56,997 nucleotides of DNA from an uncultured Halobacteriales archaeon. Lineage in GTDB: Archaea; Thermoplasmatota; E2; JACPAO01; JAHWKR01. Under the pieces are notes generated by a model, which was not told where the DNA came from, did not search any database, and was given only the letters and a program-made list of their open reading frames with translations. Made by a program: the position numbers and the translations under genes. The stretch's first letter is position 1; every line of letters begins with the position of its first letter. Positions 13,990 through 56,997 of the stretch are shown here, piece by piece. Location of the stretch: positions 1 through 56,997 of the forward strand of contig CAYVRY010000003.1 of assembly GCA_964452895.1 (NCBI GenBank). Direction: 5' to 3'.

Positions 13990-14020
13990 GATAGTCCTCT
14001 CTCCGTTCTCTCCTTGACGA

Positions 14021-14060
14021 AATATATGGATTCTCTATATAGATTATGGATAGATATGGA
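14021..14060. promoter_or_regulatory. AT-rich divergent promoter region with three phased TATGGA direct repeats
   Basis: TATGGA at 14025, 14045 and 14055 (spacing 20 and 10 nt), interleaved with TATATA-like boxes, between the AbrB-PhoU gene and pstS. Confidence 0.35.
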
Positions 14061-14163
14061 GACCTATATACTCCCGGGAGGGCGAGGGAGCCCGGGGGAG
14101 GCTTCGTAGATTCCCTCGACAAGGCCTATCCATTCGCTGCACCCAGCAGATTCACAGAGAAAA

Positions 14164-15267: not shown

Positions 15268-15288
15268 CCCGCGACCACCCCCTGACCA

Positions 15289-18109: not shown

Positions 18110-18194
18110 TGAGCAGCTTCTTCCTTCGTCGGGCAGGGCCGAGAGTCCGTTGTCTTGGTCGATCTCACAAGCGAAACGTGCGGGGGCGATATGG

Positions 18195-18851
18195 ATGACC
18201 CGGGAGCGGTTCCACGATCAGCTTTCGGCGCTTTCGGGACAATTGGACGAACTGGCCGTGTTCGCCAAGGGGATGTTGACCGGTGGCGTGGAAGCGTTCG
18301 AGGGTCTGGACCGGGATCTGGCGAACGACGTGGATTCCCGCAAGGAGACGCTCGCGGAGATGGACGACCGGATCGAACAGGAGGCGTTGCGCCTCCTCGC
18401 CTTGCAGCAGCCTATGGCGGGGGACCTGCGGCGGATCGGCGCCACCTTGAAACTGATCACGTACCTCACACGCATCGGGCGTTACGGGCGCGACATCGGC
18501 AACGTGTTGAACCGTTGGCCGGAGGGACAGAACCACGTGCTTGACCTCGTGGACTTGCCCCGCATGGCGCAGATGACGCTGGACATGCTCGATGAGGTGC
18601 TTGCTTCGTTCCGTGAAGAGCGGCCCCCCGCTCTGGACCGGATCCAGAAGCTCGAGAACGAGGTGGACGTCATGCGCCGGCGTGTGTGGGACTCCTGCAT
18701 CGTGGACATGCTTGCGACCCCTTCCCACGTCGAGGTGTGTGCACAATACATGATGGTGGCCCGCTATCTGGAACGCTGCGCCGACAATGTATGCAAGATG
18801 ACCGAGAAACTCCATTATGTGGCTACGGGTCAGCGGGTGCACGTAGGATGA
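18195..18851 (+). CDS. phoU: Phosphate transport system regulator PhoU
   Basis: Two PhoU repeats, with a DxxxD-type motif in EMDDRIEQEALRLLALQQP and a second half RYLERCADN. ATG at 18195 is preferred over 18150. Confidence 0.8.
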   Translation: MTRERFHDQLSALSGQLDELAVFAKGMLTGGVEAFEGLDRDLANDVDSRKETLAEMDDRIEQEALRLLALQQPMAGDLRRIGATLKLITYLTRIGRYGRDIGNVLNRWPEGQNHVLDLVDLPRMAQMTLDMLDEVLASFREERPPALDRIQKLENEVDVMRRRVWDSCIVDMLATPSHVEVCAQYMMVARYLERCADNVCKMTEKLHYVATGQRVHVG

Positions 18852-21429: not shown

Positions 21430-22062
21430 TTGTATGAGCAGATCAAGCCCTGGGCAGAACACCGAGGGGATGTGACGTTGATTGGCGGCTGGGCGGTCTA
21501 CGAGCTTGTGGCGCCACCATATCGGATGCAATCACGTGACATCGACCTGATCATGCACAATGGACCGGCCCTCGAGGCTTTCCAGCTCGAATTGCCGAAA
21601 TGGGGGTTGAAATGGCGCGAAAAGGGTCGCAACCGATTCAGCGACTGCCATCTCAAGGAAGATCCGGATAAGAATATCGTGGTCGATGTATTCAAAGACC
21701 ACCATTTTGCCGAACGGGTTTTCAAGGGCATCAAGGCTCGAGGGGGGGTCGGGGTAAAGTCGGCAGGTGGGCATGGCTTTCTTCCCGGTGTAGAATGGAT
21801 GATCGCCGACAAAATCCAGACGATACCAAAACGGGTAAGAGACCGTTCATTGAAGCAGGCAAAGGATCTCTTGGACATTCACGCTCTGGTTTTTCATAAT
21901 CTGCAACAGAAGACGCCCCGTGACCTTCTGAAGACGGCGTCGGATGCGAGTCGTTCCGAAGCAGCTCGATACATACAACCATCACTGGAACTACGTCCCC
22001 AAAACCAAGAGGAGCTGGAGGGACTCAGACTTTGGCTGGATCAATCCATCGATGAAGTATAG
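21430..22062 (+). CDS. Nucleotidyltransferase-fold protein, AbiEii/DUF1814-like toxin candidate
   Basis: IGGWAVYEL...SRDIDLIM fits the GG...R-x-D-x-D minimal NTase motif. TTG start. Lower-GC region. Follows the wHTH gene after a 36-nt gap. Confidence 0.45.
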   Translation: MYEQIKPWAEHRGDVTLIGGWAVYELVAPPYRMQSRDIDLIMHNGPALEAFQLELPKWGLKWREKGRNRFSDCHLKEDPDKNIVVDVFKDHHFAERVFKGIKARGGVGVKSAGGHGFLPGVEWMIADKIQTIPKRVRDRSLKQAKDLLDIHALVFHNLQQKTPRDLLKTASDASRSEAARYIQPSLELRPQNQEELEGLRLWLDQSIDEV

Positions 22063-26521: not shown

Positions 26522-27580
26522 TCACTTTTCCGAGGGGAGCGGGAACCGCAACCGGGCGGCGACCCCGCCGAGACCGGCCAGCCGCTGCCCCGCTTCATTG
26601 ACCTGCGCGATGACGTGCACGTCCGCGTTGACGCGTTCGGCGAGCTCCAGCAGCTCGTCGTGGTTCTTCTCGCGAACGGTGTGGTCCGTGATCAAGAGGG
26701 TCTCCACGGCACCGATCTCCAGGGCCTGATGGGTCTCTTGCGGTCCATACGTCGCGAGCCCGGATCCTTTGGCGATCTCGGCCAGCAGTTGTTCCATCTG
26801 CTCGGTGTCCTGCGCGATCCGGTGGTCCTTGACGATGCGTTCGAGCATGCCGCGTTTGACCGCTTCGTGGATCCCGGTCATGCCGGCCTGGCCGGTGCCT
26901 TCGGTGTACACGTCGCCCTTGTGTCCGGGGTAATCCTTGCCGAGGCGTTCTACGAGCCGTTCCCGTTTCCATCCGGGTCCCACTACGATCAAGGGGGATT
27001 GGGGGTCGCGGATCCCGGCGATCCGTTTCGCCACTTCCCCGAGGAAGTCGCCTTCGTCCTTGCTGTCGTACATCTTGCCGTGGCCTTGGGCGCTGAGCGT
27101 GGAGACTTCGCGGATCCCGTAGGCTTGCACTTCGGCGATGGTGGCTTCGTCTTCTTCCACGGCCACGGCCCATACGAGCGGCTGCCGGGATTCCTTTTCC
27201 GACTGCTTGAGGCGGTCCCAATGGTGGCGTCGCCATCCGGCCGGTTTGTGCAGGGTGAGGTCGTTGCGGCCGTCGGCCTCCACGTTGAGCGTGTGGTGCA
27301 TGCCGTGGTCCTGGCGCCCCGCGATGATCGTGCCGGCCACGCGCAGCCGGTCGCTGAAGTCCTGGAATTCCACGGTCTCCACGCGGATCGTCAGGGTCAT
27401 CGCTTTCTTCTCGGGTTTCCCGCGGCGTTCCACGGTGTCGTCCACGTCCGGTGTGCGGTGCGTGGTGGCACGCACGTCGTCGCCGGATTCCACGAGTTGC
27501 GCCAGGTGGTAGAGGTCGCCGATCACTTGGGGCACGAGTTTCACGGTGCCCGTCTCGCGGTCCCTCTTCAGGACCTTCAT
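26522..27580 (-). CDS. pelA: Pelota (Dom34) ribosome-rescue factor
   Basis: MKVLKRDRETGTVKLVPQVIGDLYHLAQLVESGDDV N-terminus, with eRF1-like central and C-terminal domains. ATG at 27580 overlaps the upstream stop (ATGA). Confidence 0.85.
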   Translation of the reverse strand: MKVLKRDRETGTVKLVPQVIGDLYHLAQLVESGDDVRATTHRTPDVDDTVERRGKPEKKAMTLTIRVETVEFQDFSDRLRVAGTIIAGRQDHGMHHTLNVEADGRNDLTLHKPAGWRRHHWDRLKQSEKESRQPLVWAVAVEEDEATIAEVQAYGIREVSTLSAQGHGKMYDSKDEGDFLGEVAKRIAGIRDPQSPLIVVGPGWKRERLVERLGKDYPGHKGDVYTEGTGQAGMTGIHEAVKRGMLERIVKDHRIAQDTEQMEQLLAEIAKGSGLATYGPQETHQALEIGAVETLLITDHTVREKNHDELLELAERVNADVHVIAQVNEAGQRLAGLGGVAARLRFPLPSEK

Positions 27581-29883
27581 CACGAGGCCTCCTCGAAGGC
27601 CTCTTCCTGGACGTGCAGGCCATGTGCCGAGACGAGCTGCAGGCTCCCGGGCGGCAGGTTGCGTTCGATGGGGTCCGGGTGGGCGTCGAAGGCACGCGCC
27701 AACGTCTTCGTGACACGGCGTCGGTCCGTCTTGCCGGGGCCCAATACGACCCAACGGTCCGCGTGGGCCTGGATCGCCGAGGGGGCGCCGGCCATGATCT
27801 TCGCCCGGAGTCCGCCGGGGGCCGTGGGGTCCGTCGGTGCGGCAGTGGGGTGTCCTTGTTTGTCGAGCCAGACGCGTCCCATGGCGAGTTCCATGGGGAG
27901 CTTGCGCATCCAGGTGCGTTTGCCGCGCACGATGAAGGCGCCGCGGGCCAGGTGTTCTCCGGCTTCCGCGGTCTTGGAGACCTGCATCGGCGTGGCCCAG
28001 TAGGCGTCGGCGCTGCCGGCTTGCGGGAAGGCGCGTGAATAGATCACGGCGAAGCGTCCGGCTTCCTCCAGGGTCTTCTCGGGGATCGCTTCGTCTTCCC
28101 GCAGGGCCTTGACCACGATGCTCGGCGCGCCGTGGATGTCCGCGTGCACGTAGCGGTCGTTCTCCTGCAGATGCTTCTTGATGAGCCGGTCGTTGGACGC
28201 GGCGTCGCGTCCCCCCAATACGAGTTCCCCGTTGGAGGCGTACATCCAGCGGAAGCTCTCGAACCAGTGGTGGCGTTCCCCGCCGATCAGGAGCGCGGGA
28301 CGGGCGGCGAGTTCGCGTGCTTCCTCGGCGGCCATGGACGCTTCCTGGGCCGCCGCCTGGAGCCGTTCCCGCGTCGATGCGAGGGCTTTCTTGGCACCGG
28401 CGAGTTTGCTCCGGCCTGCCTTGGAGCGCGTGTAGGCCACTTCCGCGTTCTCGTTGACGTTCTTCGTGATGTCCAAGGCGACGTCTTCCTGGCTGCCGTC
28501 GCTGTGGTCGAGGCGCAGCACGAGGCGTCCTTTCTTGGGTTCGAGCGAGACGATCCGTTGGGCGTCCGGGTTGCCCGCCTTGCGTCCTTGTTCGATCCGG
28601 TCCATGATCGTGGCCCAGTCGTGTTCACGTCGCGCCGTGTGGATCCCTTCGAGTATCCGTTCGATCTCCTGGTAGTGGGCGTACAGCAGGTCGCCGTGGC
28701 GGCGGCTCTTTTTCTCCTGCTCGGCGAATTTCACGATGGCCTCTTCCTGGGCGTCGCGCTGCGTCTCGAGTTTTGTTTTCGCTTCGTCGACGCGTTCGGA
28801 TTCCTCTTTCGCCTCCACGGTCCTTCGGCCTTCCAGGTGAAGGCGATCCAACGCGGCGCTGAACGTGGGGGTCTCCACGATCTGGTAGCGTCCGCTGTCC
28901 GCCTCGACCTTTTGTTCCATGAGGACGCTCCGGTGGGGTGCGCAGTCCACGGCGCGACCGTCTTCCATGAGCAGGCGCCCGGTGGGGGTCTCGTCGCTGA
29001 CTTCCTGGCGTAGGCCTTCCCAGGCGGCGAAGATGCGCGCGAGGGTCTCGTCGTGGGCCTCTTCGATGGGTGCGTTCTTGTCGACCCCGGCGCGGGCGAT
29101 CACTTCCTCGGCGACGGGACCGCCGAGTCCCACTTCCCGGGCCACGGCCCGCACGATCTCCCGGTTGCCTTCGCGCAGTTTCGCGATGAACGTCTCTTCG
29201 TCGAAGGTGAACGGGTCGGCGCGCGCGGGCGGCGGTTCGTACGCGGCACCGGGGCGCAGGGTGCGCGTTTTCCAGGCTTCATGCACCAGCGGGAGCAGGA
29301 TCCGGCCGTCGGGGCGGATGAGCAGGCAGTTCCCGTCGCCGAACATCTCCAACACGATGCGGTAGTCGCCGTCGCGTTTTTGCACGTGCACCGTGACGAT
29401 CCGGTCGAAGCCGGCTTGTTCGATCTTGTAGATGCGGCCGCCGGCGGCGTGGCGGCGGATCGCCATGGCGAACGAACTGGGGTGCGTGGGGTTCGCCGGG
29501 GGGTTCGTGGTGAGCAGGACCAGGGCGCCGCGTCGGGCGTAGAGATCCCGGCGGCCGACGCCGGGTTGCCGCAGGCGCAGGAGCAGTTCGTCGCGCGTGG
29601 GTTGGTAGGCTTTTTCCACGAAGGCGCCCACCAGGGGCTGCAGTTCCTTCTGGAGCGCCCGGATCTCCAGGGCGCTCAGTTGCGAGCGTTTGGGTCGCGG
29701 CAGCAGGATCTCTTGCGTGGGGTCGTCCGGGTCGGTGGTTTCTTCACTGCGGGGCGCGGGCTCGTGGGTCGGCTCGGAGGGGCCGTCCTTGCCGTGTGCG
29801 GGGTCTTCGTGGGCCCCCTGGGAGCCTTCCCGTGGGGGGGAGGGTGTGGCCACGGGGCGCGGGAGGTGGGTCGGGGTCTTCAC
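27580..29883 (-). CDS. NFACT-family protein (FbpA/RqcH/Rqc2 homologue) with a DUF814-type C-terminal domain
   Basis: NFACT-N features (LSALEIRALQKEL, FDRIVTV, EMFGDGNCLLI), a long coiled-coil middle, and HADIHGAPSIVVK of the NFACT-R/DUF814 region. An about 70-aa Pro/Glu-rich N-terminal extension makes the start uncertain. Confidence 0.8.
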   Translation of the reverse strand: MKTPTHLPRPVATPSPPREGSQGAHEDPAHGKDGPSEPTHEPAPRSEETTDPDDPTQEILLPRPKRSQLSALEIRALQKELQPLVGAFVEKAYQPTRDELLLRLRQPGVGRRDLYARRGALVLLTTNPPANPTHPSSFAMAIRRHAAGGRIYKIEQAGFDRIVTVHVQKRDGDYRIVLEMFGDGNCLLIRPDGRILLPLVHEAWKTRTLRPGAAYEPPPARADPFTFDEETFIAKLREGNREIVRAVAREVGLGGPVAEEVIARAGVDKNAPIEEAHDETLARIFAAWEGLRQEVSDETPTGRLLMEDGRAVDCAPHRSVLMEQKVEADSGRYQIVETPTFSAALDRLHLEGRRTVEAKEESERVDEAKTKLETQRDAQEEAIVKFAEQEKKSRRHGDLLYAHYQEIERILEGIHTARREHDWATIMDRIEQGRKAGNPDAQRIVSLEPKKGRLVLRLDHSDGSQEDVALDITKNVNENAEVAYTRSKAGRSKLAGAKKALASTRERLQAAAQEASMAAEEARELAARPALLIGGERHHWFESFRWMYASNGELVLGGRDAASNDRLIKKHLQENDRYVHADIHGAPSIVVKALREDEAIPEKTLEEAGRFAVIYSRAFPQAGSADAYWATPMQVSKTAEAGEHLARGAFIVRGKRTWMRKLPMELAMGRVWLDKQGHPTAAPTDPTAPGGLRAKIMAGAPSAIQAHADRWVVLGPGKTDRRRVTKTLARAFDAHPDPIERNLPPGSLQLVSAHGLHVQEEAFEEAS

Positions 29884-41643: not shown

Positions 41644-42756
41644 TTGAAATGGGGATTTGTCGTGGGCACCGCGATGAGCGCACCACGTCAGACCCACACG
41701 AGTGTCCTTGGTAACGTGGAGATCCCGATCACCTATTCAGCGGAGGAGGCCGTGGGGCTCATGCAGGAAGCCGGCGTCGTGGGTGCAGGCGGCGCGGCCT
41801 TCCCGACCTATGTGAAGTACAAGGACACCCCGCAGGCGCTCGCCGTGAATGCTGCAGAGAGTGAACCGGGGTACTACGCCGACAAGATCCTGCACCGGGA
41901 CGAACCGGAGGCGTTCATCAATGTCTTCGAATGGATGAAGGCGACCTTCAGCATGGAGATCATGCTCGTCATCGCCGAGGACGTCGCAAAGCCCTACATG
42001 GAGCCCATGGAAGAGCTTGCCCAGAAACTCCATAATTTCTCGATCTCCTACATCGAACCCAAATACAAGTTCGGACAGGAGAAGGCCCTCTTGAAGGCCG
42101 CTTTGGGGCTGAACATCCCGAAAAAGGAGATCCCGCCGAACTATGGGTTCATCGTGAACAACACGGAGAGCATCTTCAACATCTACCGCGCGGTCTTCCG
42201 GGAGCGCCCCGTCGTCACGAAGTTCATGCACTTCTACGGGGAAGTGGGCGAGAACGTGAAAGCATACGAGGTGCCCGTGGGCACCTTGGCCCACGACCTG
42301 GTGGAGATCTACGGCGCGGAGGCGAAAGAGGTAAGGGATTGCATCCTCTACGACGGAGGGCCCATCCTTTCCGAGAAAGTGGCCGAACCCATGGGCGAAG
42401 AATGCCTGGTCCCCGTCACGAAGAGCACGAACGCGTTCCTCGTCGTGGATCCCGAGAAAGCCCGCCTGAAGAAGAAGCACTACCCGCACCCGGACTACGA
42501 GCACAACACGATCGATTGTCCATGGGCCCCGGACAAGATCGACAACCTGGAGGGGGACATCCATCGGGTGCGGATCCCGCTCACGGGGAAGTTCCAGAGC
42601 CCCGGGCGCCTCGACGTGAAGGAAGGTGACGAAGTACGGGCCCGTGAGACCCTGGCGGAACCCGCATCGGAGGGGTTCAGCGTCGGGGTCCATGCATCGA
42701 TCGACGGCAAGGTCACCAAGATCACGGACGACTGGATCGAGATCGTGCGCCAATAA
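41644..42756 (+). CDS. RnfC/NqrA-like SLBB-domain protein lacking Fe-S motifs, with the RnfC_N-type barrel at its C-terminus
   Basis: GVVGAGGAAFPTYVK and NAAESEPGYYADKIL match the RnfC nucleotide-binding region. C-terminal IPLTGKFQSPGRLDVKEGDEV...VHASIDGKVTKI matches the barrel-sandwich hybrid that sits N-terminally in RnfC. No CxxCxxCxxxCP motif is present. Confidence 0.55.
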   Translation: MKWGFVVGTAMSAPRQTHTSVLGNVEIPITYSAEEAVGLMQEAGVVGAGGAAFPTYVKYKDTPQALAVNAAESEPGYYADKILHRDEPEAFINVFEWMKATFSMEIMLVIAEDVAKPYMEPMEELAQKLHNFSISYIEPKYKFGQEKALLKAALGLNIPKKEIPPNYGFIVNNTESIFNIYRAVFRERPVVTKFMHFYGEVGENVKAYEVPVGTLAHDLVEIYGAEAKEVRDCILYDGGPILSEKVAEPMGEECLVPVTKSTNAFLVVDPEKARLKKKHYPHPDYEHNTIDCPWAPDKIDNLEGDIHRVRIPLTGKFQSPGRLDVKEGDEVRARETLAEPASEGFSVGVHASIDGKVTKITDDWIEIVRQ

Positions 42757-42762
42757 CCGTAG

Positions 42763-44091
42763 ATGTTCCGCGCGGATTCGTTCATGTTCATTGGGTCTTC
42801 ATCAGCGACGCACCCCCGGGACCAAGAGTCGTCCGTAGACAATAAGACCGCCGCGGACGTTGCCCATGAGCCCACCGTCCCCCCGGTCGCCCAGCCCGGT
42901 GTATCCACCGAGGCACCGCTTTCCGTCACGGCACCTCCTGCGACTCCCCGTCAACGGCTGCGGCGTCTGATCCGGCTGCAGGTCTATTACGGGTTTTTCG
43001 CCACGCTGCACTGGATCCTGCTCTATTTCTTCCTGCTCAACGAGTTGGAGACGCCGCTCATGTTCGTGCTTCTGCTGGCGGCGTTCTTCTACACGGTGGC
43101 CGCGCTGGTCATGATCCTGCTGCCGGCCATGGAGTACCGCTGGGCGTTGCGGACCGGGTTCTTCGTCCGGATCCTGGCGATCCTCCCATTCTGGCTCTGG
43201 CCCACCCCCGCCGGGATCTTCGTGGGCGGGTTCTTCTTCGGCTTGGCTCAATCCCTGTTCTGGGTGCCCTACAACCTGATCTTCTTCGAGCACCGGGCGC
43301 GCAGCGTGAACGCGGGGACCAGTGCGATCGCGTTCTCCGTGCAGCCCGTGCTGGATGTCATCGCCGCCATCGCGGCGGGTCTGATCGTCCTGCGCTTCGG
43401 CTACCCGGGCCTGTTCGCCTCCGCCTTCATCATCGGGCTCGTGGGATGGCCGGGGACCCTGCGTCTTGAACCGCGCACCCGGACACGGATCGAGATCTGG
43501 GCCCGCCTGGCCCGCTTGAAGAAACTGCGGCTCCTGATGTACCTGGACGGAGTGAGCCAGGGGGTCGTATGGATCGGGGTCGCGGTGGTGACGGTCGTGT
43601 TCATTGATTCCGCGCTCGAATACGCCGCGTTCTTCGCGGTCTTGGGGATCGTGGGCGGCGTGGCGGCCTTGCTCCTGGGGCGCATGTCGGACAAGCGCGC
43701 CAAACGGTTCGCATTCATCTGGCCCATCGCGTTGGTCTTCGGCCTGGCGAACATCGTCAGCGCGTTCGCCGTCTCCATCTGGGTGTGGGGGGCGGCCCGG
43801 GCGTTCTCCACGTTCTTCGGGCTCGTCTTCGACCCGTTCAAGAACGCCGTCTACCTGGACACCGCGACCACGGTGGAGGACCTGTACATGGGGCGTGAGC
43901 TCTTGATGAACTGCGGTCGCGTCACGGGCGCGTTGGTCCTGATGGCCGCTTACGGGTTGGGCAACATCCAGTCGGCGCTCCTGGTCGCGGGGGGGATCGC
44001 CATCGCGGTCCCGATCCTGATCTCCGTGGGCGACCTCTATCCGCAGGAGCGCTTCGTGCTCAAGCCGTGGCGCATGGCCTGGCGGCAGTGA
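42763..44091 (+). CDS. Polytopic membrane protein, MFS-like transporter
   Basis: About 10-12 hydrophobic segments after a roughly 75-aa low-complexity N-terminus. Basic loops between TM pairs (GRMSDKRAKRF). Confidence 0.5.
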   Translation: MFRADSFMFIGSSSATHPRDQESSVDNKTAADVAHEPTVPPVAQPGVSTEAPLSVTAPPATPRQRLRRLIRLQVYYGFFATLHWILLYFFLLNELETPLMFVLLLAAFFYTVAALVMILLPAMEYRWALRTGFFVRILAILPFWLWPTPAGIFVGGFFFGLAQSLFWVPYNLIFFEHRARSVNAGTSAIAFSVQPVLDVIAAIAAGLIVLRFGYPGLFASAFIIGLVGWPGTLRLEPRTRTRIEIWARLARLKKLRLLMYLDGVSQGVVWIGVAVVTVVFIDSALEYAAFFAVLGIVGGVAALLLGRMSDKRAKRFAFIWPIALVFGLANIVSAFAVSIWVWGAARAFSTFFGLVFDPFKNAVYLDTATTVEDLYMGRELLMNCGRVTGALVLMAAYGLGNIQSALLVAGGIAIAVPILISVGDLYPQERFVLKPWRMAWRQ

Positions 44092-44124: not shown

Positions 44125-45030
44125 TCATCCGCCCGGGTGCACCGGTTCGTCGCCGTGTCCGGGGGTCGCGCCATACGTGTCCCGCCTCGGCCCGATTCTT
44201 TTCTCCAGGGCAAGACCGGCGCCGTACGCGAGCAGGGCGACGAGCACGCCGGCGACGATGTCCAGCGCCCAGTGCACCTGCAGGTAGACGACGCTGAAGG
44301 CCACAGTGGGCGCGTAGACGACGACGGTGCGCCTGAAACGCGGGTTCACGGAGTGCAGGCCATGGAGCATGATCAGCGTGGCGAGGCCCACGTGCAGCGA
44401 CGGGATCGTGTTGTCGATGGTGGTGCCGCGGTAGAAGAGTGCGGTGGTGCCGGGGATCACCCGGTCGAGCACGCTGTCCAGTCCGAGGTAGACCGTCGGG
44501 TTGGTGGCCGGGAAGAAGGTGAAGCCGGGTAGCGCGAACAGCCAGATCATCAGGTAGGAGACAAGAAGCCGCCGCACGATGCGGCGTTCCCCGGTGTAGG
44601 CCAGGAAGAACGGGGCGATGAAGATGAAGGCGTTGTGCAGGACGAGGTAGACCCAGAACAAGACGAAGAGCAGGGGGCCCCAGTGCAGCGTGCTGAGCCA
44701 GGGGACGAGTTCGCCTTCGATGGCGTAGAGGAAGCCGGCGAAATCGAAACCGGTCAGGTCCAGCCACCATTCCCGGGTGACCGGGTTCAGCAGGTTCACC
44801 TGCACGACGTGCCCGATGATCGCGATGACCCCGAACAGCACGAAGCGCCGGTCCTGGGCAAGGCGGGACAATGTGAGCCCGAGGGCTTTGCCGGGAGAGG
44901 TGTATCGCTTCTCCGGCGGTGATGCAAAAAAATAGAAGGCGGCCGCGAAGGTGAGGCCCACGAGCAGGAAGAGCGGCCCGAGCAGCATGGCTGGCAACTC
45001 CGCTATAGCCATCCCTCCGCCTCGTACCAT
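44125..45030 (-). CDS. PAP2_C-type membrane phosphotransferase (sphingomyelin/IPC-synthase-like)
   Basis: Six TM segments. IPSLHVGLA and VHWALDIVAGVLVA correspond to the PSxH and HxxxD(V/I)xxG motifs of the PAP2_C/AUR1/SMS group. Alternative ATG at 45012. It overlaps the 3' end of the SDR gene. Confidence 0.6.
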   Translation of the reverse strand: MVRGGGMAIAELPAMLLGPLFLLVGLTFAAAFYFFASPPEKRYTSPGKALGLTLSRLAQDRRFVLFGVIAIIGHVVQVNLLNPVTREWWLDLTGFDFAGFLYAIEGELVPWLSTLHWGPLLFVLFWVYLVLHNAFIFIAPFFLAYTGERRIVRRLLVSYLMIWLFALPGFTFFPATNPTVYLGLDSVLDRVIPGTTALFYRGTTIDNTIPSLHVGLATLIMLHGLHSVNPRFRRTVVVYAPTVAFSVVYLQVHWALDIVAGVLVALLAYGAGLALEKRIGPRRDTYGATPGHGDEPVHPGG

Positions 45031-45989
45031 TCATGGGTCGCACGCAGCCCGCGGGTGAGGTCCATGCGCGGTTGCCAGGTCATGGCGTCCACGGTGCTCG
45101 TGTCCGCCACCCAGTGTTTGGCGCGGAGTTCGCGCACTTTGTCGGGGTTCAACATGGCCGGGCGTCCGGTGAACCGGCCCATGAGCCCGGTGAGTCGCGC
45201 GCTCCCGGTGAGCAGGGGGGCCGGGATCCGGAGGTTGCGAAGCGGGCGCGTGCCGAGGGCCTGGGCCAGGCTGGCGCGCACTGTGTCGTTCGTGTGCGGG
45301 GGACCGTCGGCGGGTTCCAGGATCCGTACTTCGTGGGTCGGCAGCGAGGTTCCAAGTTGATCGACGACGAGCCGGGCGCAGTCGGGCCCGTAGAGCATGC
45401 TGAAGTGGGCGTCGGGGGGGACCAGTACGGGGTACAGGCCGTACCGGGCGGTCTTCAGCAGACCCAAGAGCCCGCGGTCGCGTGGGCCGTAGAGGGCCGG
45501 GGGGCGCACGATCAGGGTTTTCACGGGGTGCTTCCTGGCATGATCGCGCACGGCGCTTTCGCCACCGAGTTTGCTTGCTCCGTAATCGGAGAGCGGGTGC
45601 GGTTTGGCGCCCGCGGGCCTTGGTGCCGGTGTGGGGCTGGGGCCTTTTGCGGCGAGACTGGAGACGTGGATCAAGGTCTCGACCGGGTTCTTCGTGCAGG
45701 CGGCGAGCAGGTTCCGCGTGCCCGTGGTGTTTGCTTCATGGTAGCCGTGCCGGTTGCTGGCTGCGACGGTACCGGCGGCATGGATCACGGCGTCGGCGTC
45801 CCGGACGAGCCGTTCGAGACGGTCCACTTCGGTCAATGAGCCGGGGATCTGGGTCACGCCCAGCGTGTCGAGGTGCTTCCGGTCGCTCGTGGGGCGCACG
45901 AGACAGACCGCTTCGTGCCCGTTCCCGGTGAGTTGCTCGGCGATGTGCGCGCCGAGGAATCCTGTGCCCCCGGTGACGGCGACGCGCAT
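45003..45989 (-). CDS. NAD(P)-dependent epimerase/dehydratase-type SDR (candidate 3-keto reductase)
   Basis: N-terminal VTGGTGFLGAHIA Rossmann motif and YGASK (YxxxK) catalytic motif. 328 aa. Confidence 0.75.
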   Translation of the reverse strand: MRVAVTGGTGFLGAHIAEQLTGNGHEAVCLVRPTSDRKHLDTLGVTQIPGSLTEVDRLERLVRDADAVIHAAGTVAASNRHGYHEANTTGTRNLLAACTKNPVETLIHVSSLAAKGPSPTPAPRPAGAKPHPLSDYGASKLGGESAVRDHARKHPVKTLIVRPPALYGPRDRGLLGLLKTARYGLYPVLVPPDAHFSMLYGPDCARLVVDQLGTSLPTHEVRILEPADGPPHTNDTVRASLAQALGTRPLRNLRIPAPLLTGSARLTGLMGRFTGRPAMLNPDKVRELRAKHWVADTSTVDAMTWQPRMDLTRGLRATHEWYEAEGWL

Positions 45990-46051
45990 CAGGCACCTCG
46001 GTCAGGCGGTGCTCGGCGTCGGCGCAGGGTGCCCCGCTTCGCGGCCATGGT

Positions 46052-47167
46052 TCATACCTGGGTTTCGTAGATCCGGTAGGTCTTGTAGTGCTCGCTGCCG
46101 GTGCGTTCGATGCTGCGGTTGATGGCTTGGTTGTCTTCCAGGGTCCACGAGAGTTCCCCCCATTGGAGGCCTTTTCGTTTGCCGGCCTCGTGCAGCCGGC
46201 CGTAGAGCCCGGTCAGGATCGCCCGGCTCCAGGGCCCGCGGTGCTTGGGGAGGATCCCCACGAGCATGAGGCGGGCGGTCTGGGTGCCTTGGACCTTCAA
46301 CCGCCACAGGAGGCGTGCCCATCCCAGGGGCAGAAGCCGGCCGTCGAGATCGGCGATCGCTTCGTTCACGTTGGGGACGGCCACGGCCATGCCGGCGGGT
46401 TCCCCGTCCAGTTCCGCGATCAGGATGTAGTCGGGGTCGGCGATGGGTTTCAACCCTTTCGCGGTGGCCCGCAGTTCGGATCTCGTGATCGGTGAGAATC
46501 CCCAGTTGTCCTTCCACGCCTCGTTGTAGATCGATACGATGACGCCGAGTTCCTCTTCGAATTTCTTCAGGTCCACGTTCCGGAAGACGAGCCGGTCCTG
46601 TGATTTCGTGGCTTCGTATTCGTCGATCACGTTCTGCGGCATGCCTCCGACCGTGAAGCGGTACGCGAAGAGGTCCTTCTTCTTCTCCAGCCCGGCGCCT
46701 TTCAGGAGCGCGTCGTAGTGTTCGCCGTTGTGGTTCATCATGAGCATGGGCGGGCTGTCGAAGCCTTTGACCAGGACTCCCAGTGGCTCGTGGCTGGTCC
46801 AACAATAGGGCCCTTGCATGCGTGCCCGGCCTTCTTCCCGGACCCAGGAGGTGGCGGCGTCCACGAGTTGCCGGGCGGCGCCCGGGTCGTCGACGCAGTC
46901 GAAGAACCCGAACGAGGCCGTGTCCGAGTCGTGGCGGGGGTCGTAGTGGGCGCTGATCCGTCCCACGGTCTTGCCGTCCTGCTTGGCAAGGAAGAGCCGG
47001 GCGCGGGCGTGGCGCAGGAAAGGATGACGTTTCGTGTCCAGTTGCTCCTTCATCTGCATGCGCAGCGGCGGGATCCAGTTCGGATCGTCGCGGTTCAACC
47101 GGTATGGGAGTTCCAGGAACCGCCGTCGGTCTGGGTCGCTTTCCACCGGTTCGGCCCGAAGGGTCAT
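46052..47167 (-). CDS. Long (371 aa) GNAT-superfamily N-acyltransferase, YghO-like, candidate bacterial-type ceramide synthase
   Basis: N-terminal FLELPYRLNRDDPNWIPPL...FLAKQDGKTVGRISAHYD...FGFFDCVDDP is the hallmark of the long GNAT family. A 16-nt gap separates it from the upstream alpha-oxoamine synthase gene. Confidence 0.55.
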   Translation of the reverse strand: MTLRAEPVESDPDRRRFLELPYRLNRDDPNWIPPLRMQMKEQLDTKRHPFLRHARARLFLAKQDGKTVGRISAHYDPRHDSDTASFGFFDCVDDPGAARQLVDAATSWVREEGRARMQGPYCWTSHEPLGVLVKGFDSPPMLMMNHNGEHYDALLKGAGLEKKKDLFAYRFTVGGMPQNVIDEYEATKSQDRLVFRNVDLKKFEEELGVIVSIYNEAWKDNWGFSPITRSELRATAKGLKPIADPDYILIAELDGEPAGMAVAVPNVNEAIADLDGRLLPLGWARLLWRLKVQGTQTARLMLVGILPKHRGPWSRAILTGLYGRLHEAGKRKGLQWGELSWTLEDNQAINRSIERTGSEHYKTYRIYETQV

Positions 47168-47183
47168 GGTGTCCTCTCCATGA

Positions 47184-48461
47184 TCAGATCACACCGAGCC
47201 GTTTGCCGACGCGTTCGAAGACCCCGAGGGCTTCTTCGATCTGTTCACGTTCGTGTCCGGCGGTGAGGCTCGTGCGCAGCAGGCCGCCGCCGGAGGGCAC
47301 ACTGGGCCAGACCGCGGCGTTCACATAGACGCCCTCGTTGAGCAGCTCCCGCCACATCTTGAAGACCAGGAAGTCCTGTCCGAGCAGGACGGGCACCACG
47401 GGGGTCTCACCGACGGTCTTGAACCCGAGGCCGGTGAGGCCTTTGCGCCAGATGTTCGCGTTCTGGTTCACGCGTTCGATCCGTTCCGGTTCGTCGCGCA
47501 GGATGTTCAAGGCGGCGTTCGCCGCGGCGAGGTTCGGGGGCGCCAAGGAGGCGCTGAAGATCATGCTGCGCCCGTAGTGCTTGATGTAGTTCATCACGAG
47601 GCGTTCCCCGGCGACGAATCCGCCGATGGAGGCGAGGGATTTGCTGAAGGTGCCCACGATCAGGTCCACGTCGTCCTGCACCCCGTAATGGAAGGCCGTG
47701 CCGCGTCCGCCGGGGCCGATCGTGCCCACGCCGTGGGCGTCGTCCACGAGCACGCGGGCGTTGTGCCTCTTGGCCACCTCGATGATCTCCGGGAGCGGGG
47801 CGAGGTTGCCGTGCATGCTGAACAGGCCGTCGGTGACGATCAGGCATCCCGTGTCGCCGTTCTGGTGGCGCTGGAGCAGGCGTTCCATCTGGGCCACGTT
47901 GCCATGGGGGAAGACGGCACTGCGGCCCTGCGAGAGCCGGCAGCCGTCCATGATCGAGGCGTGGGAGTGGTTGTCGATGAGCGCCACGGAGTGTTGGTTC
48001 AACAGGGCGGTGAAGACGCCGATGTTGGTCTGGTAACCGGTGGCGAAGACGAGGGCGGCCTCCTTGCCCAGGAAATCGGCCAGGTTGCGTTCCACCTCAA
48101 GATGGAGTTCGGAGGTGCCGTTGAGGAACCGGGAGCCGGTGTAGCTCGTGCCGTGGGACTGGGTGACCTTCTTGACCGCGTCCAGGACTCGGGGGTCGTG
48201 GGTGAGCCCGAGGTAGTTGTTCGAGCCGAACATGAGGACCTCGCGGCCCTTGATCACGGCGACGGTCCCTTCGTTGCGTTCCAGGGGCTGAAAATAGGGG
48301 TTGAGTTCCTGGGCGTCGAGCTGTTCGGAGATCAAGAACCGGCGGGCTTTCTCCAGGATATCCGGATGAGCCAAGTTCCGGTAGCGCTCCAGGACAGCGC
48401 CAGTGGATTCAAACGCAGTGTCCATCGTACCGTCTCCCAGGGCAGCCCGTTTCGGCTCCAC
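47184..48461 (-). CDS. Alpha-oxoamine synthase, serine palmitoyltransferase-like
   Basis: PLP-lysine context GTFSKSLASIGG. SNNYLGL. GSRFLNGT (the SPT-type version of this motif, versus BioF or Kbl variants). By eye it is collinear with Sphingomonas SPT to the C-terminal ...GVI. GTG at 48461 fits a leaderless start. Alternative ATG at 48425. Confidence 0.7.
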   Translation of the reverse strand: MEPKRAALGDGTMDTAFESTGAVLERYRNLAHPDILEKARRFLISEQLDAQELNPYFQPLERNEGTVAVIKGREVLMFGSNNYLGLTHDPRVLDAVKKVTQSHGTSYTGSRFLNGTSELHLEVERNLADFLGKEAALVFATGYQTNIGVFTALLNQHSVALIDNHSHASIMDGCRLSQGRSAVFPHGNVAQMERLLQRHQNGDTGCLIVTDGLFSMHGNLAPLPEIIEVAKRHNARVLVDDAHGVGTIGPGGRGTAFHYGVQDDVDLIVGTFSKSLASIGGFVAGERLVMNYIKHYGRSMIFSASLAPPNLAAANAALNILRDEPERIERVNQNANIWRKGLTGLGFKTVGETPVVPVLLGQDFLVFKMWRELLNEGVYVNAAVWPSVPSGGGLLRTSLTAGHEREQIEEALGVFERVGKRLGVI

Positions 48462-48480
48462 CGAGCCGTCAAACAGGGGG

Positions 48481-48490
48481 CAATATATAA
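48481..48490 (-). promoter_or_regulatory. TATA-like box upstream of the SPT-like operon
   Basis: caatatataa (minus strand TTATATATTG) lies 20-29 nt upstream of the GTG at 48461, the same geometry as at 6736-6750. Confidence 0.4.
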
Positions 48491-48680: not shown

Positions 48681-50279
48681 TCAGTCCCGCTTGCTGCGCC
48701 GCGGGCCGGAGGGCCGCCTGTGCGCCCGGACGAGCGCGGTCAGCGCAACGAGCAGCAGGACGACGCCCGGCGCGCCGGTACTCACGATGTCGTCGAAGTC
48801 CACGGTGTTGTTGCCCGCTTGGAAGGGGTCGCTGTCTCCGCCGGCTTTGAACTGGAAGTGACGCGCCGTGTTGATCTCGTTGCCATAGAACGGGGTCGGC
48901 GGGGCCGGGGTGAGGGAGTAGGGGTCCACGTGCAGGGTGTAGTCGCCGTTTTTGGGCGGGGTGAAGGTGAACGGGTAGTCGCCGTCGGCATGGGTGTGCA
49001 GTTTGCCGGCCAAAAGCAGGCGGTCCGTGTCGCCGTGGGTGATCCGGATGTTGATCTCGCCGTGCGCGAAGGGTTCGCCGGCCAGCGAGTTCACCCGGAC
49101 GGTGACCTGGCTGGGCTCTCCGGCGGTGACGTCTTCGAGCCCGTCCACGGTGACGAGGTGCGGGCCCGGCGTCAACGTCGCCACCGGCGGCAGCACGGAG
49201 TAGGTGAATTCGGCGGTGCCGGTCCAGTCCGTGCGGCTGTCTTCGGCTTCCACGACGAGACGATGGTCGCCCACGGTCTGGTGGCTCGTGGTGATCTCAA
49301 GGATCCCGTCGAAACTGTGCAGGGTCTGTGCCTCGAACAGGACGTCCCCGTGTGGGCCCGTGATCGTGGCGTCGTAGTCCAGGTGCTCCACGGGGCGACC
49401 CGTCTCGCTGTCCACCACGCTGGTGACCAGTCGGATCGGGCTCCCCGCGCCCACGCTTGTGTAGGGGTCGTACGAGGCGAAGATCCGGTACGGTTCGGCC
49501 GCGCTCCCCCGGTCGACCCGGTTCTCGAGGGCGTCGTTCGTGATCAGCCCGGGCAGTCCCGGCGGGCCGGGTTCCACGTCCACGGTGTGCGTCGTGGTGA
49601 AGGCGGCGAACGTGGCCACGCCTTCTCCGGCGAATGCCTCGAAGGCGCTCAGACGCAACTGGTGCTCACCGGCTTCTTCGAAGACATAGTCCAGGGCGTG
49701 GTCGGCTTCCGGGTCGTGGGCGTGCGTGTCGGTCTTGAAGACGAGGGAGTCGCGCTCTACGTTCCAGATCTCCAGGTCCACTTGGGCATGCCGGATCGTC
49801 TCACCCTGCGCGTCGACCACGCGGTAGCGAAGCGGCGTCGGTTCTCCCGTCGTCGTCGTGGTGGGCGGGTCCCATTGCAGGCTCGCTTTTCCCTCCGCGT
49901 GTTCATGCACCACGCCTGCGAAGGAGGCGGTGGCGTCCTCGTCGCCGGGCACGCGCACGTCGACGCTGTAGTCGCCTGCGCCGGGGAAGGCGATCATGTA
50001 GCGTCCGATGCCGTCATAGTCGTGGCCGCTGGCGGCGGTCGTGGCGAACAGCGTCGTGTTGCGGTAGGTGACCACGAACTCGGCGTCCTGGTGGACTTGT
50101 GGTGCGCCGCGTGCGTCCAAAAGCGCCCAGCCGAACCGGTTCAGGTTGTCGGCATGGGTATCCCCGTTGGGCGGGTTCTCATGCAGGACCACGGCGTGTG
50201 ATTCTTGCCCCACGGCCGCGGGTGCGAACAGGGTGATCAACAGGACCAAGGCGAACAAGACGGGGCCACGAACACGCAT
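48681..50279 (-). CDS. Secreted protein with four His-rich Ig-like repeats and a C-terminal P-G-x/TM/basic anchor
   Basis: Signal peptide. Four about 110-aa repeats ending in GDYSVDVRV, GEHQLRLSAF, GDHRLVVEAE and GDYTLHVDP. C-terminal GAPGVVLLLVALTALVRAHRR. Confidence 0.6.
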   Translation of the reverse strand: MRVRGPVLFALVLLITLFAPAAVGQESHAVVLHENPPNGDTHADNLNRFGWALLDARGAPQVHQDAEFVVTYRNTTLFATTAASGHDYDGIGRYMIAFPGAGDYSVDVRVPGDEDATASFAGVVHEHAEGKASLQWDPPTTTTTGEPTPLRYRVVDAQGETIRHAQVDLEIWNVERDSLVFKTDTHAHDPEADHALDYVFEEAGEHQLRLSAFEAFAGEGVATFAAFTTTHTVDVEPGPPGLPGLITNDALENRVDRGSAAEPYRIFASYDPYTSVGAGSPIRLVTSVVDSETGRPVEHLDYDATITGPHGDVLFEAQTLHSFDGILEITTSHQTVGDHRLVVEAEDSRTDWTGTAEFTYSVLPPVATLTPGPHLVTVDGLEDVTAGEPSQVTVRVNSLAGEPFAHGEINIRITHGDTDRLLLAGKLHTHADGDYPFTFTPPKNGDYTLHVDPYSLTPAPPTPFYGNEINTARHFQFKAGGDSDPFQAGNNTVDFDDIVSTGAPGVVLLLVALTALVRAHRRPSGPRRSKRD

Positions 50280-50539: not shown

Positions 50540-52267
50540 GTGTCGAAGAACACCGAAGTGGCGGCCTTCCTGGATGAGTTCGCGGATATCCTGGAACTCA
50601 AGGAGGTCAAGTTCAAACCGGAGGCGTATCGCCGGGCCGCGCAGCAGGTGCGTGTGTTCCCTGACGACATCGGCGACGTGGCACGAGACGAAAGGCTGCA
50701 CGAGATCCCGGGCGTGGGGGCGTCCATCGCCGCGAAGATCGCGGAGTACGTGGAGAAGGGCGAGGTCAAGGAGCTCACGAAACTGAGGAAAGAGGTGCCG
50801 GGGGGCCTCGCTGAACTCATGGACCTGCCCGGGCTGGGGCCGAAACGGGTCGCCCTGTTGAACAAGGAGCTGGGCATCAAGGACGCGGCGTCCTTGAAGA
50901 AAGCCGCCGAAGAGAAGAAGATCGAGAAGATCGACGGTCTGGGGGCCAAGACGCAACAGGAGATCCTGGACGGTTTGTCGCGGCAGCGGGACAAGCCCGA
51001 GCGCTTCCCACAGGGACGGGGGCTCCAGGTGGCCTCGCGGTTCATCAGGCTCATCGAGAAGACGGGCAAGGCGGACTCTGTGGGTTACGCGGGTTCCCTG
51101 CGCCGGGGACGGGACACGTTGGGGGACCTGGACCTCCTGGTGGCGGCCGGGGAAAGCGATGCGGAGGCGATCATGACCGCGTTCGTATCCGCGTCGGAGG
51201 TGGAGGATGTGATCGCGCACGGGCAGAAGAAATCGAGCGTGCGTCTTTCGGACGGGCTCCAGGTGGACCTGCGGGTCGTCACCCCGGACCAGTACGGCGC
51301 GGCGCGCCTGTATTTCACGGGTTCGAAGGCGCACAACGTGGCGCTGCGCAAGCGGGCCAACGGGTATGGTTGGACGCTCAATGAGTACGGCTTGATGCGG
51401 AAGAAAGACGACAAGGTGATCGCGGGGAGGACGGAAGAGGAGATCTACAAAAAACTGAAGTTCGAGTGGATCCCGCCGGAGATCCGGGAGGACCAGGGGG
51501 AGATCGACGCCGCGAAAAAAGGCAAACTGCCGAGGCTCCTGGAGCGCTCCGACGTGATCGCGGACCTGCACACGCACACGAACTATTCAGACGGGCGCGA
51601 CAGCCCGCGGAAGATGCTGGAGGCGGCGCAGGCGAGCGGGTTGAAGGTCTACGGGTTCAGCGACCATTCGTACACGTTGCGGTTGTCGAAGGGGGAGGAC
51701 GCGAAGATCCGCAAGCAGGCCAAGGAATTGGATAAGCTCAGGGAGGAGTTCCCGGACATGACGATCCTTCTGGGTTCCGAGGTGAACATCAAGAAGGACG
51801 GTTCCCTTGATTCTCCGAAAAAGATCCTGGCGGGGTTGGATTACGTGATCGGCAGCGTGCACAACGCGTTCGATTTGCCGGAGAAGGAGCAGACGAGGCG
51901 GGTCCTCAAGGCGATCGACGAGGGGATCGACATCTTCGGCCATCCGTCGGGGCGCAAGATGCCCAAGCGGGAACCGATCCGTTTCGATGATCGCAAGGTC
52001 TTCGAGGCGTGCGCCGAACAGGGGGTCTTGTTGGAGGTGGACGGGCAACCGGAGCGTCTGGACCTGCCCGGCGAACGGGTGCTCAAGGCGAAGCAGGCGG
52101 GATGTCGCTTCGTGGTGGACTCCGACGCGCACAGCACCGAGGCCCTGGAGTTCATGGGACACGCCGTGACCCAGGCGCGTCGGGGTTGGCTGGAGAAAGA
52201 GGACGTGGTCTCCACTTGGACGGCGAAGCAGATCCAGGGTGCCCTCGGGCGGATGAAGAAAGAGTAG
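50540..52267 (+). CDS. polX: Family X DNA polymerase with a C-terminal PHP domain
   Basis: HhH motifs, the GSLRRGRDTLGDLDLLV nucleotidyltransferase motif and PHP motifs DLHTHTNYSDG and DSDAHS. GTG start. Confidence 0.85.
   Translation: MSKNTEVAAFLDEFADILELKEVKFKPEAYRRAAQQVRVFPDDIGDVARDERLHEIPGVGASIAAKIAEYVEKGEVKELTKLRKEVPGGLAELMDLPGLGPKRVALLNKELGIKDAASLKKAAEEKKIEKIDGLGAKTQQEILDGLSRQRDKPERFPQGRGLQVASRFIRLIEKTGKADSVGYAGSLRRGRDTLGDLDLLVAAGESDAEAIMTAFVSASEVEDVIAHGQKKSSVRLSDGLQVDLRVVTPDQYGAARLYFTGSKAHNVALRKRANGYGWTLNEYGLMRKKDDKVIAGRTEEEIYKKLKFEWIPPEIREDQGEIDAAKKGKLPRLLERSDVIADLHTHTNYSDGRDSPRKMLEAAQASGLKVYGFSDHSYTLRLSKGEDAKIRKQAKELDKLREEFPDMTILLGSEVNIKKDGSLDSPKKILAGLDYVIGSVHNAFDLPEKEQTRRVLKAIDEGIDIFGHPSGRKMPKREPIRFDDRKVFEACAEQGVLLEVDGQPERLDLPGERVLKAKQAGCRFVVDSDAHSTEALEFMGHAVTQARRGWLEKEDVVSTWTAKQIQGALGRMKKE

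Positions 52268-53601: not shown

Positions 53602-56997
<3,396 letters not shown>

Follow-up and report, generated by a model that had tools for sequence, protein, structure and literature searches.

A predicted bacterial-type ceramide operon in an archaeal contig, with a candidate Aur1-like head-group gene

Does an archaeon carry its own genes for making ceramide? By the usual view, sphingolipids belong to eukaryotes and to some bacteria. The question is raised by a locus of four genes in contig CAYVRY010000003.1 of GenBank assembly GCA_964452895.1, assigned to an uncultured archaeon, of which we analysed the stretch from position 1 to 56,997 (hereafter the window). An earlier note, made from the letters of this DNA alone, had read the four genes as an operon for a complete bacterial-type ceramide and phosphosphingolipid pathway. 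Our conclusion, drawn from sequence comparison, is that the locus likely holds a three-gene bacterial ceramide route (Spt, bCerS and CerR) that is native to an archaeon, with a plausible finishing step carried out by a membrane protein of the PAP2_3 family.

The four open reading frames (ORFs) run in the same direction on the minus strand, at 47184-48461 (425 aa), 46052-47167 (371 aa), 45003-45989 (328 aa) and 44125-45030 (301 aa), and were picked over many shadow ORFs by a codon-position GC screen. They encode, in this order, an alpha-oxoamine synthase (AOS), a GNAT-type acyltransferase, a short-chain dehydrogenase/reductase (SDR) and a PAP2-type membrane protein. The AOS and GNAT genes are separated by 16 nt and the GNAT and SDR genes by 62 nt, while the SDR and PAP2 genes overlap. 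GC content at third codon positions is 0.83-0.87 in the four genes, like that of the rest of the window (window 65% GC). Their translations contain GSRFLNGT, GTFSKS, LPYRLNRDDPNWIPPL, GGTGFLG, YGASK, PSLH and HWALDIVAG. When set against the ORF list and the sequence, the four ORFs, their strand, both gaps, the overlap and a TATA-like box ahead of them are all as the earlier note described, and every motif that it cited is found in the translations. The ORFs that it listed do exist, but two of them probably start further in. We place the AOS start probably at ATG 48425 (413 aa) and not at GTG 48461, because all relatives have a 413-aa AOS and because a GGGAGA precedes that ATG. Likewise, the PAP2 gene probably starts at 45012, because the resulting N-terminus (MAIAELPAM..., about 295 aa) agrees with that of its relatives. 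These relatives come from other assemblies: a 47-kb Logan contig (L001), a JGI contig (L084) and the NCBI metagenome-assembled genome (MAG) GCA_964599105.1 (L083). A PAP2 start at 45012 leaves a 10-nt overlap with the SDR gene, which is identical in L001 and L084. The features of the locus, with the evidence for each, are as follows.

47184 to 48425, minus strand: Spt-like alpha-oxoamine synthase, 413 aa (Pfam, NCBIfam and PDB matches, neighbour-joining tree)
46052 to 47167, minus strand: bCerS-type GNAT N-acyltransferase, 371 aa (full-length homology, locus context)
45003 to 45989, minus strand: CerR-like extended SDR of the epimerase/dehydratase family, 328 aa (Pfam, motifs, orthology)
44125 to 45012, minus strand: PAP2_3 membrane protein of the Aur1/inositol phosphorylceramide (IPC) synthase type, about 295 aa, candidate ceramide phospho-head-group transferase (Pfam, clade profile)
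48433 to 48438, minus strand: Shine-Dalgarno-like site, GGGAGA (7 nt before the ATG at 48425)
48483 to 48490, minus strand: TATA-like box TTATATAT (read in the sequence)

Ahead of the operon, TTATATATTG occupies 48490-48481 on the minus strand, and TTATATAT occurs only twice in the whole 57-kb window. This box of the window lies about 58-65 nt before the probable AOS ATG, and an A/T-rich TATA-like box is found 65-70 nt before the ATG in L001, L083 and L084, and in a further contig, L087. At the position equivalent to GGGAGA, the contigs L001, L083 and L084 have AGGAGG, GGGAGG or AGGAGA, all of the GGAG type and 7-10 nt upstream of the ATG. The intergenic sequence around the box and this site has otherwise diverged among the relatives.

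Is the AOS an enzyme of the Spt type? It is a fold-type I pyridoxal phosphate (PLP) enzyme by its match to Pfam Aminotran_1_2 (E 3.8e-53), and the NCBIfam models rank serine palmitoyltransferase (SPT) equivalogs first, at 431 and 383 bits, before bioF (365) and Kbl (358); it lies under the bioF and Kbl cut-offs too, with lower scores there than for the top two SPT models. Searching the PDB with phmmer places Sphingobacterium SPT at the top (352 bits), followed by a Thermus AOS (293) and Sphingomonas SPT (281), with KBL (∼245), cysteate acyltransferase (228-229), BioF (∼198), ALAS (182 and 159) and CqsA (∼127) lower. The phylogeny proposed as a check in the earlier note was built by neighbour-joining from 33 sequences over 364 columns, using AOS sequences found beside GNAT homologues, E. 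coli BioF and Kbl, and three PDB sequences taken from HMMER alignments; ALAS and CqsA were left out of the tree and only scored, lower. The window AOS falls within a clade of 27 sequences (90% bootstrap) that holds both solved SPTs and every GNAT-adjacent AOS, with the Thermus AOS, E. coli Kbl and E. coli BioF outside it. GTFSKS (with the PLP lysine), SHASIMDG (with a His) and VDDAHG align to K265, H159, D231 and H234 of Sphingomonas SPT, among them the catalytic Lys and the His and Asp residues that bind PLP.

The best solved match, Sphingobacterium multivorum SPT (PDB 3A2B/8GUH), aligns over nearly the full length and has GSRFLNGT, GTFSKSLAS and HASI(I/M)DG in common with the window AOS, as well as a Val where Sphingomonas SPT has R378. 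It differs in that the window AOS sits in a separate clade, nearer to sequences of Planctomycetota, Chloroflexota and Myxococcota. The reading of this protein as an SPT-type enzyme is thus borne out by the profile ranks, the PDB scores and the clade shared with the solved SPTs, and activity with serine and an acyl-CoA or an acyl thioester of acyl carrier protein (ACP) is predicted. On scores and tree position, BioF, Kbl, ALAS, CqsA and cysteate acyltransferase are unlikely identities for it.

What of the GNAT? Pfam returns a weak, partial Acetyltransf_1 match (27.3 bits, residues 44-113), no NCBIfam model matches, and a single-sequence phmmer search of the PDB gives no significant homologue. 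Homologues number more than 6000. The best 80 loci found with its profile among GTDB species representatives are all bacterial, at 36-47% identity, with no archaeal genome among them; the homologues listed belong to Myxococcota, Chloroflexota, Planctomycetota, Alphaproteobacteria, Nitrospirales and other taxa, the alphaproteobacterial ones including Caulobacter, Brevundimonas and Phenylobacterium. The homologue in Caulobacter endophyticus, which stands in for C. crescentus CCNA_01212, is 40% identical to the window protein over 380 aa. It adjoins a gene for an LptF/G-like permease, and a CDP-alcohol phosphatidyltransferase (CDP-OH_P_transf) gene lies about 4.4 kb upstream. In the published description of the C. 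crescentus sphingolipid locus, bcerS is CCNA_01212 and is followed by lptG2/lptF2 (CCNA_01213/01214) and cpgA (CCNA_01217). The C. endophyticus layout agrees with this ccna_01212-01217 layout, making its GNAT a positional orthologue of bCerS. We assign the window GNAT to the bCerS family because of its 40% identity to this homologue and because the homologue's locus fits the published one. Furthermore, at least eight bacterial loci have a GNAT homologue flanked immediately by an Spt-like AOS on one side and an SDR on the other, and clustering of spt, bcerS and cerR in bacteria has been published (PMC11334938), with which the AOS-GNAT-SDR order of the window agrees. The bCerS-type identity first suggested from motifs therefore holds on two counts, the full-length identity to the Caulobacter positional orthologue and the gene order in bacteria.

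The SDR matches Pfam Epimerase (E 2e-32), together with 3Beta_HSD and NAD_binding_4, and carries GGTGFLG (the GxxGxxG of NAD(P) binding) and YGASK (the catalytic YxxxK), in agreement with its earlier description as an epimerase/dehydratase-type enzyme. Aligned over about 330 aa, it shares 31-39% of its residues with SDRs that directly follow bCerS homologues in loci of Polyangiaceae, Dehalococcoidia, Chloroflexia and Pseudomonadota; the same type of enzyme follows bCerS in many bacteria.

Taken in the order known from Caulobacter, these enzymes would make a ceramide in three steps. 3-Ketodihydrosphingosine would be formed from L-serine and a long-chain acyl-CoA in a condensation by the Spt-like PLP enzyme, the bCerS-type GNAT would N-acylate this to an oxidised (3-keto) ceramide, and the CerR-like SDR would then reduce the 3-keto group with NAD(P)H, yielding dihydroceramide. 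We infer the substrates, the acyl donor and, from Caulobacter, the order of the steps. The C. crescentus pathway (Stankeviciute et al. 2022, cited in PMC9393093 and PMC11087976) consists of Spt (CCNA_01220), bCerS (CCNA_01212) and CerR (CCNA_01222), has the same presumed chemistry of condensation, N-acylation and reduction, and has its CerR in the periplasm, whereas an archaeal host has neither outer membrane nor periplasm. The window and the Caulobacter and other bacterial pathways share the same three families, the AOS-GNAT-SDR order of many bacterial loci, and a GNAT with 40% identity. In contrast to Caulobacter, the window operon lacks a dedicated ACP and ACP synthetase as well as an LptF2/G2-type (Lpt-like) transporter, it has an archaeal TATA promoter, and it couples a PAP2_3 gene to the core where Caulobacter has CpgABC or glycosyltransferases.

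Is the host an archaeon, and is the operon its own? The window encodes a pelota (TIGR00111, 225 bits against 177.65) and an archaeal RqcH of the NFACT type (NF041120, 585 bits against 400) that both score above curated cut-offs, along with DtdA (PF04414), a DUF531 protein, an AbrB-PhoU regulator and a stand-alone GuaA C-terminal subunit. Profile matches thus confirm the archaeal markers named in the earlier note (pelota, DtdA, NFACT/RqcH, the GuaA subunit and AbrB-PhoU). The nearest named relatives of the pelota are from a 'Euryarchaeota archaeon' (57% identity) and from Thermoplasmatota/Thermoplasmata MAGs (39-42%). By its gene content we take the contig to be archaeal, from a host related to Thermoplasmatota. 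Two of these markers, pelota (26522-27754) and RqcH (27580-29883), are ribosome-rescue factors that lie adjacent on the minus strand; their apparent 175-nt overlap stems from an over-long upstream start of the pelota ORF, and the called pelota has 352 aa.

The operon recurs in the other assemblies together with its surroundings. The L001 contig carries both the operon and a pelota 78% identical to that of the window, and its gene order is that of the window: PolX, a Filamin-like gene, AOS-GNAT-SDR-PAP2, MFS, RnfC-like, Kelch, beta-helix and PALP. L084 and L083 keep those parts of the order that their shorter contigs span; the Filamin-like gene flanks the operon in L001 and L083, and PolX and MFS do so in L001 and L084. 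Identities to the window proteins are 85-87% for AOS, 69-74% for GNAT, 57-59% for SDR and about 70% for PAP2. Codon usage of the operon is mid-range, its genes ranking between 15 and 35 among 45 window genes, and its tetranucleotide correlation with the whole window is 0.961, where stretches of 4.4 kb have a median of 0.966. The checks of synteny and of tetranucleotide usage that the earlier note had suggested thus find the same operon and neighbourhood in three other assemblies and a typical composition, and its description of native composition behind an archaeal-style promoter is upheld, the TATA box being kept in the relatives. We consider both a chimeric assembly and a recent transfer unlikely, because of the synteny in other assemblies, the conserved TATA-like and Shine-Dalgarno-like sites, and the typical codon and tetranucleotide usage.

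An artefact of assembly or binning, in which a bacterial operon has been joined to archaeal DNA and no archaeon carries it, would explain why close relatives outside a clade of seven loci (described below) are all bacterial and why no archaeal genome appears among the best 80 GTDB-representative loci. We regard this as very improbable: both junctions of the operon recur in independent assemblies (Logan and JGI) at protein identities of 67-86%, the NCBI MAG contig has the upstream junction, the L001 contig also bears a pelota orthologue, the codon and tetranucleotide usage is typical of the window, and an archaeal-style TATA box is conserved upstream.

How, then, did an archaeon come by the operon? 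The AOS-GNAT-SDR order is found in the window and in L001, L002, L083, L084, L087 and L088, and these seven form a monophyletic group with 100% bootstrap in each of the AOS, GNAT and SDR trees (the SDR tree was also built by neighbour-joining). This clade is nested among bacterial sequences, and none of the three trees resolves a sister group for it. Because the same seven sequences form 100% clades in all three trees, the operon was probably acquired from Bacteria once, as a block, and vertically maintained afterwards. In L002 and L088 the three ceramide genes lie next to NucS, and L002 also has RtcB and archease. The NucS of these contigs, which have no PAP2 gene in the cluster, has archaeal PDB matches only, but no other NucS entries matched; RtcB scores about equally against the Thermus and Pyrococcus proteins.

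The surroundings of the cluster differ among its members. In L087 (5699-8080; GNAT 58% identical) a 553-aa ORF that matches no Pfam family comes after the cluster, and beyond it, two genes past the SDR, lies an FA_hydroxylase gene (PF04116), which suggests hydroxylated ceramides and a tailoring set different from the PAP2_3 of the window. Directly after the SDR and before NucS, L002 (7551-7973) and L088 (2961-3383) have a conserved 140-aa ORF, again with no Pfam match, that may be a further component of the cluster. In the window, an MFS transporter gene (42763-44091, plus strand; weak MFS_1 match) converges on the PAP2 gene across a 33-nt gap and is preceded by a gene for a lone RnfC-like FMN-binding protein (41644-42756, plus strand). 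The MFS position is kept in L001 and L084, and that of the RnfC-like gene in L001. The MFS protein could be a lipid exporter or flippase, although synteny at large may be all that keeps its gene in place. The gene immediately before the operon encodes a secreted Filamin/Ig-like repeat protein of 532 aa with a C-terminal hydrophobic anchor (48681-50279, minus strand), probably a surface protein outside the operon.

What might the fourth gene add to the ceramide core? Its product belongs to Pfam PAP2_3 (PF14378; 59.1 bits against a cut-off of 27, E 6.6e-16, profile positions 21-189 of 190) and also matches generic PAP2 (PF01569), while PAP2_C (PF14360) gives no match at E ≤ 0.01. The earlier note was right about the PAP2 superfamily and about the PSLH and HWALDIVAG motifs, but the PAP2_C label that it gave is not supported by these matches. 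The sphingomyelin synthases (SMS1/2 and SMSr), which are PAP2_C enzymes, share with the window protein the PAP2/LPT superfamily and the proposed head-group transfer to ceramide; they differ from it in the family, given that it does not match PF14360 at that threshold. By word-based search there are only six close homologues, and all belong to the operon clade; with a profile searched exhaustively, 651 representatives reach E ≤ 1e-3 and only five reach E ≤ 1e-30.

Single-sequence phmmer against the PDB gives nothing significant for the PAP2_3 protein, whereas the clade profile searched against all PDB sequences has yeast AUR1 as its best match (E 2.9e-4), ahead of LpxE. PSLH and VHWALD align over the catalytic H255, H294 and D298 of AUR1, in a similarity that spans only ∼76 residues, and these His-His-Asp residues (the C2 His and the C3 HxxxD) are invariant in 16 PAP2_3 homologues. 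In its HMMER alignment with LpxE, a phosphatase, the window protein has F, N and V in place of the C1 Lys, C1 Arg and C3 Arg. The wider PAP2_3 alignment has no conserved basic residue at the C1 and C3 columns, and Aur1 also has no C3 Arg. Such a pattern without Lys or Arg favours phosphodiester transfer over phosphomonoester hydrolysis. In Aur1, the catalytic subunit of IPC synthase, H255, H294 and D298 are essential by mutagenesis (PMC13133130), and for the Bacteroides AUR1 homologue BT_1522 a role as inositol-phosphoryl-dihydroceramide synthase has been validated genetically (PMC9246714). The window protein resembles these AUR1-type IPC synthases in its PAP2_3 family, its aligned triad and the absence of the phosphatase-type Lys and Arg; it differs in the short extent of the similarity, in having no Kei1-like partner present, and in that its broader homologues are not linked to ceramide genes.

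In a fourth step, the translationally coupled PAP2_3 protein, with a His-His-Asp triad like that of Aur1, would move a phospho-head group onto the C1 hydroxyl of ceramide and so form a phosphosphingolipid. The donor would be a resident glycerophospholipid, presumably an archaetidyl lipid. No gene for an inositol-phosphate synthase or an AIP synthase was seen in the window.

Several results weigh against this account of the locus, at the core and at the finishing step alike. The AOS scores under all three SPT equivalog cut-offs (431/640, 383/500 and 324/670 bits), the models being specific to lineages (CFB, Betaproteobacteria and Alphaproteobacteria); the score of 431 against 640 is for the CFB-type model and sets the window AOS apart from Sphingobacterium SPT. 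The reference for the SDR was the bCerS-adjacent bacterial enzymes and not Caulobacter CerR (CCNA_01222) itself. Like the earlier note, we find no gene for ACP, acyl-ACP synthetase or acyl-CoA synthetase in the window, and to our knowledge Archaea are generally without an ACP-based fatty-acid synthase; for these two reasons the acyl donor is unexplained, which is the main biochemical gap. The Spt-bCerS-CerR core stands, but the pathway cannot be called 'complete' as it was in that note, given that the supply of acyl donor lies outside the window and that the product is a prediction.

It is conceivable, though improbable, that the cluster makes a non-canonical N-acyl amino lipid instead of a serine-derived sphingolipid, for example one with a 1-deoxy base (from alanine or glycine), a cysteate-derived base of the sulfonolipid type, or a base made from isoprenoid or branched acyl-CoA. 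The shortfall of the AOS against every curated SPT cut-off would be in keeping with this, as would the lack of any evident source of straight-chain acyl groups in the window; furthermore, the Black Sea study treats such divergent members of the clade only as 'Spt-like' (PMC11334938). Set against this are the scores of the solved SPTs (352 and 281 bits), far above those of cysteate-C-fatty acyltransferase (228-229), KBL (∼245) and BioF (∼198), and the nesting of the AOS in a clade with both solved SPTs.

For the finishing step, the points on the other side concern the company that PAP2_3 proteins keep. None of 79 metagenomic loci with PAP2_3 homologues of 25-45% identity has an AOS or GNAT gene in the fetched flanks, and the association with ceramide genes is limited to the close clade: the window, L001 and L084 (in L083 the PAP2 gene is cut by the contig end). 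Among the homologues are some in unrelated archaeal contexts and some that form fusions with an archaeal CCA-adding enzyme. L002, L087 and L088 have the three ceramide genes with no PAP2 gene in the cluster. An AlphaFold2 model of the window protein, from a six-sequence alignment, has a pLDDT of 58.9, too poor to test the fold, and was not used; the Foldseek search of this model against the PDB gave no match at E ≤ 0.001, which is uninformative, and was likewise set aside. The His-His-Asp triad is, in addition, common to true phosphatases (PMC13133130).

These points could mean that the core makes dihydroceramide while the PAP2_3 protein is an unrelated native archaeal membrane enzyme, or a phosphatase acting on ceramide phosphate, long-chain-base phosphate or polyprenyl phosphate, in which case the pathway would end in neutral ceramide or in a lipid that genes elsewhere complete. 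Such an explanation, which we think rather unlikely, accommodates the distant homologues that are common in metagenomes and never beside an AOS or GNAT gene in the 79 loci, the archaeal contexts without ceramide genes and the CCA-enzyme fusions, the clusters without PAP2, and the presence of the triad in LpxE and PgpB-type phosphatases. It accounts less well for the 10-nt stop/start overlap of SDR and PAP2, kept in three genomes that are ∼30% apart at the protein level, for the absence of the Lys and Arg that hold the phosphomonoester in PAP2 phosphatases, or for AUR1 coming before LpxE as the best solved-structure match of the clade.

Returning to the ceramide route with an Aur1-like finishing step, we regard head-group transfer to ceramide by the PAP2_3 protein as reasonable to propose, and not as a finding; we would give it somewhat less than an even chance. 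The step is only plausible because none of the 79 loci with distant homologues lies near ceramide genes. An Aur1-type PAP2_3 protein with the triad thus keeps the phosphosphingolipid of the earlier note plausible, but the case is weaker than was stated there, with the link to ceramide confined to the clade. Of that interpretation as a whole, the ceramide core and the archaeal host stand, while the phosphosphingolipid step is only plausible and the PAP2_C label is replaced by PAP2_3. More tentatively still, these archaea may make dihydroceramide and an Aur1-like phosphosphingolipid whose head group comes from an archaeal ether phospholipid, and so have a mixed membrane of isoprenoid ethers and sphingolipids.

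The fusions seen among the PAP2_3 homologues are of note in themselves. L090 (6001-8088) encodes a protein of ∼700 aa with a PAP2_3 membrane domain at the N-terminus, fused to an entire archaeal class-I CCA-adding enzyme (NTP_transf_2, tRNA_NucTransf2 and CAA_C), and P0190, P0192 and P0196 are of the same kind. At least three such fusions are confirmed among the best 150 representative matches, and seven more matches are of similar length. The L090 gene follows one for a LigT-like 2'-5' RNA ligase and lies near an archaeal flagellin gene, with no ceramide genes.

Elsewhere in the window, two further bacterial-type genes lie near the operon in this archaeal contig, encoding a full PolX (50540-52267, plus strand, 454 bits) and an NAD-dependent DNA ligase of the bacterial type, LigA (53629-55677, plus strand, 854 bits), both above cut-off. 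A phosphate-uptake locus occupies 12961-18851, with the AbrB/MazE-PhoU fusion regulator on the minus strand followed by a PstS-like protein, a permease, an ABC ATPase and PhoU. Other genes encode a Fic-domain protein (8173-9393, minus strand), a copper amine oxidase-like protein (11596-12942, plus strand) and a short AbiEii-like nucleotidyltransferase toxin fragment (21430-22062, plus strand).

How new is this system? A metagenomic survey of the Black Sea found Spt-like genes in 38 bacterial phyla but none in its archaeal MAGs, and its authors concluded that archaea at that site make no sphingolipids (PMC11334938). A 2026 analysis ties eukaryote-type sphingolipid enzymes to Asgard archaea, but these are a different, non-homologous set. 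We found no report of an Spt, bCerS and CerR pathway in Archaea in the literature searched, in line with the earlier remark that sphingolipid synthesis had not been described in this domain. The system can be recognised as belonging to the bacterial ceramide pathway already known; its interest lies in the archaeal host and in the Aur1-like gene coupled to the operon.

If our reading is true, Archaea would for the first time be seen to make sphingolipids, and the 'lipid divide' would be breached anew. Were the operon natively expressed and vertically inherited, archaeal membranes, normally made of isoprenoid ethers, would gain a third class of lipid, and these archaea would have a supply of fatty acyl thioesters. 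The four genes would be a clonable test case for amide-linked acyl lipids alongside ether lipids, and the operon also offers a candidate prokaryotic ceramide head-group transferase for biochemical study. Sphingolipid biomarkers in the environment could then not be assumed to be purely bacterial or eukaryotic.

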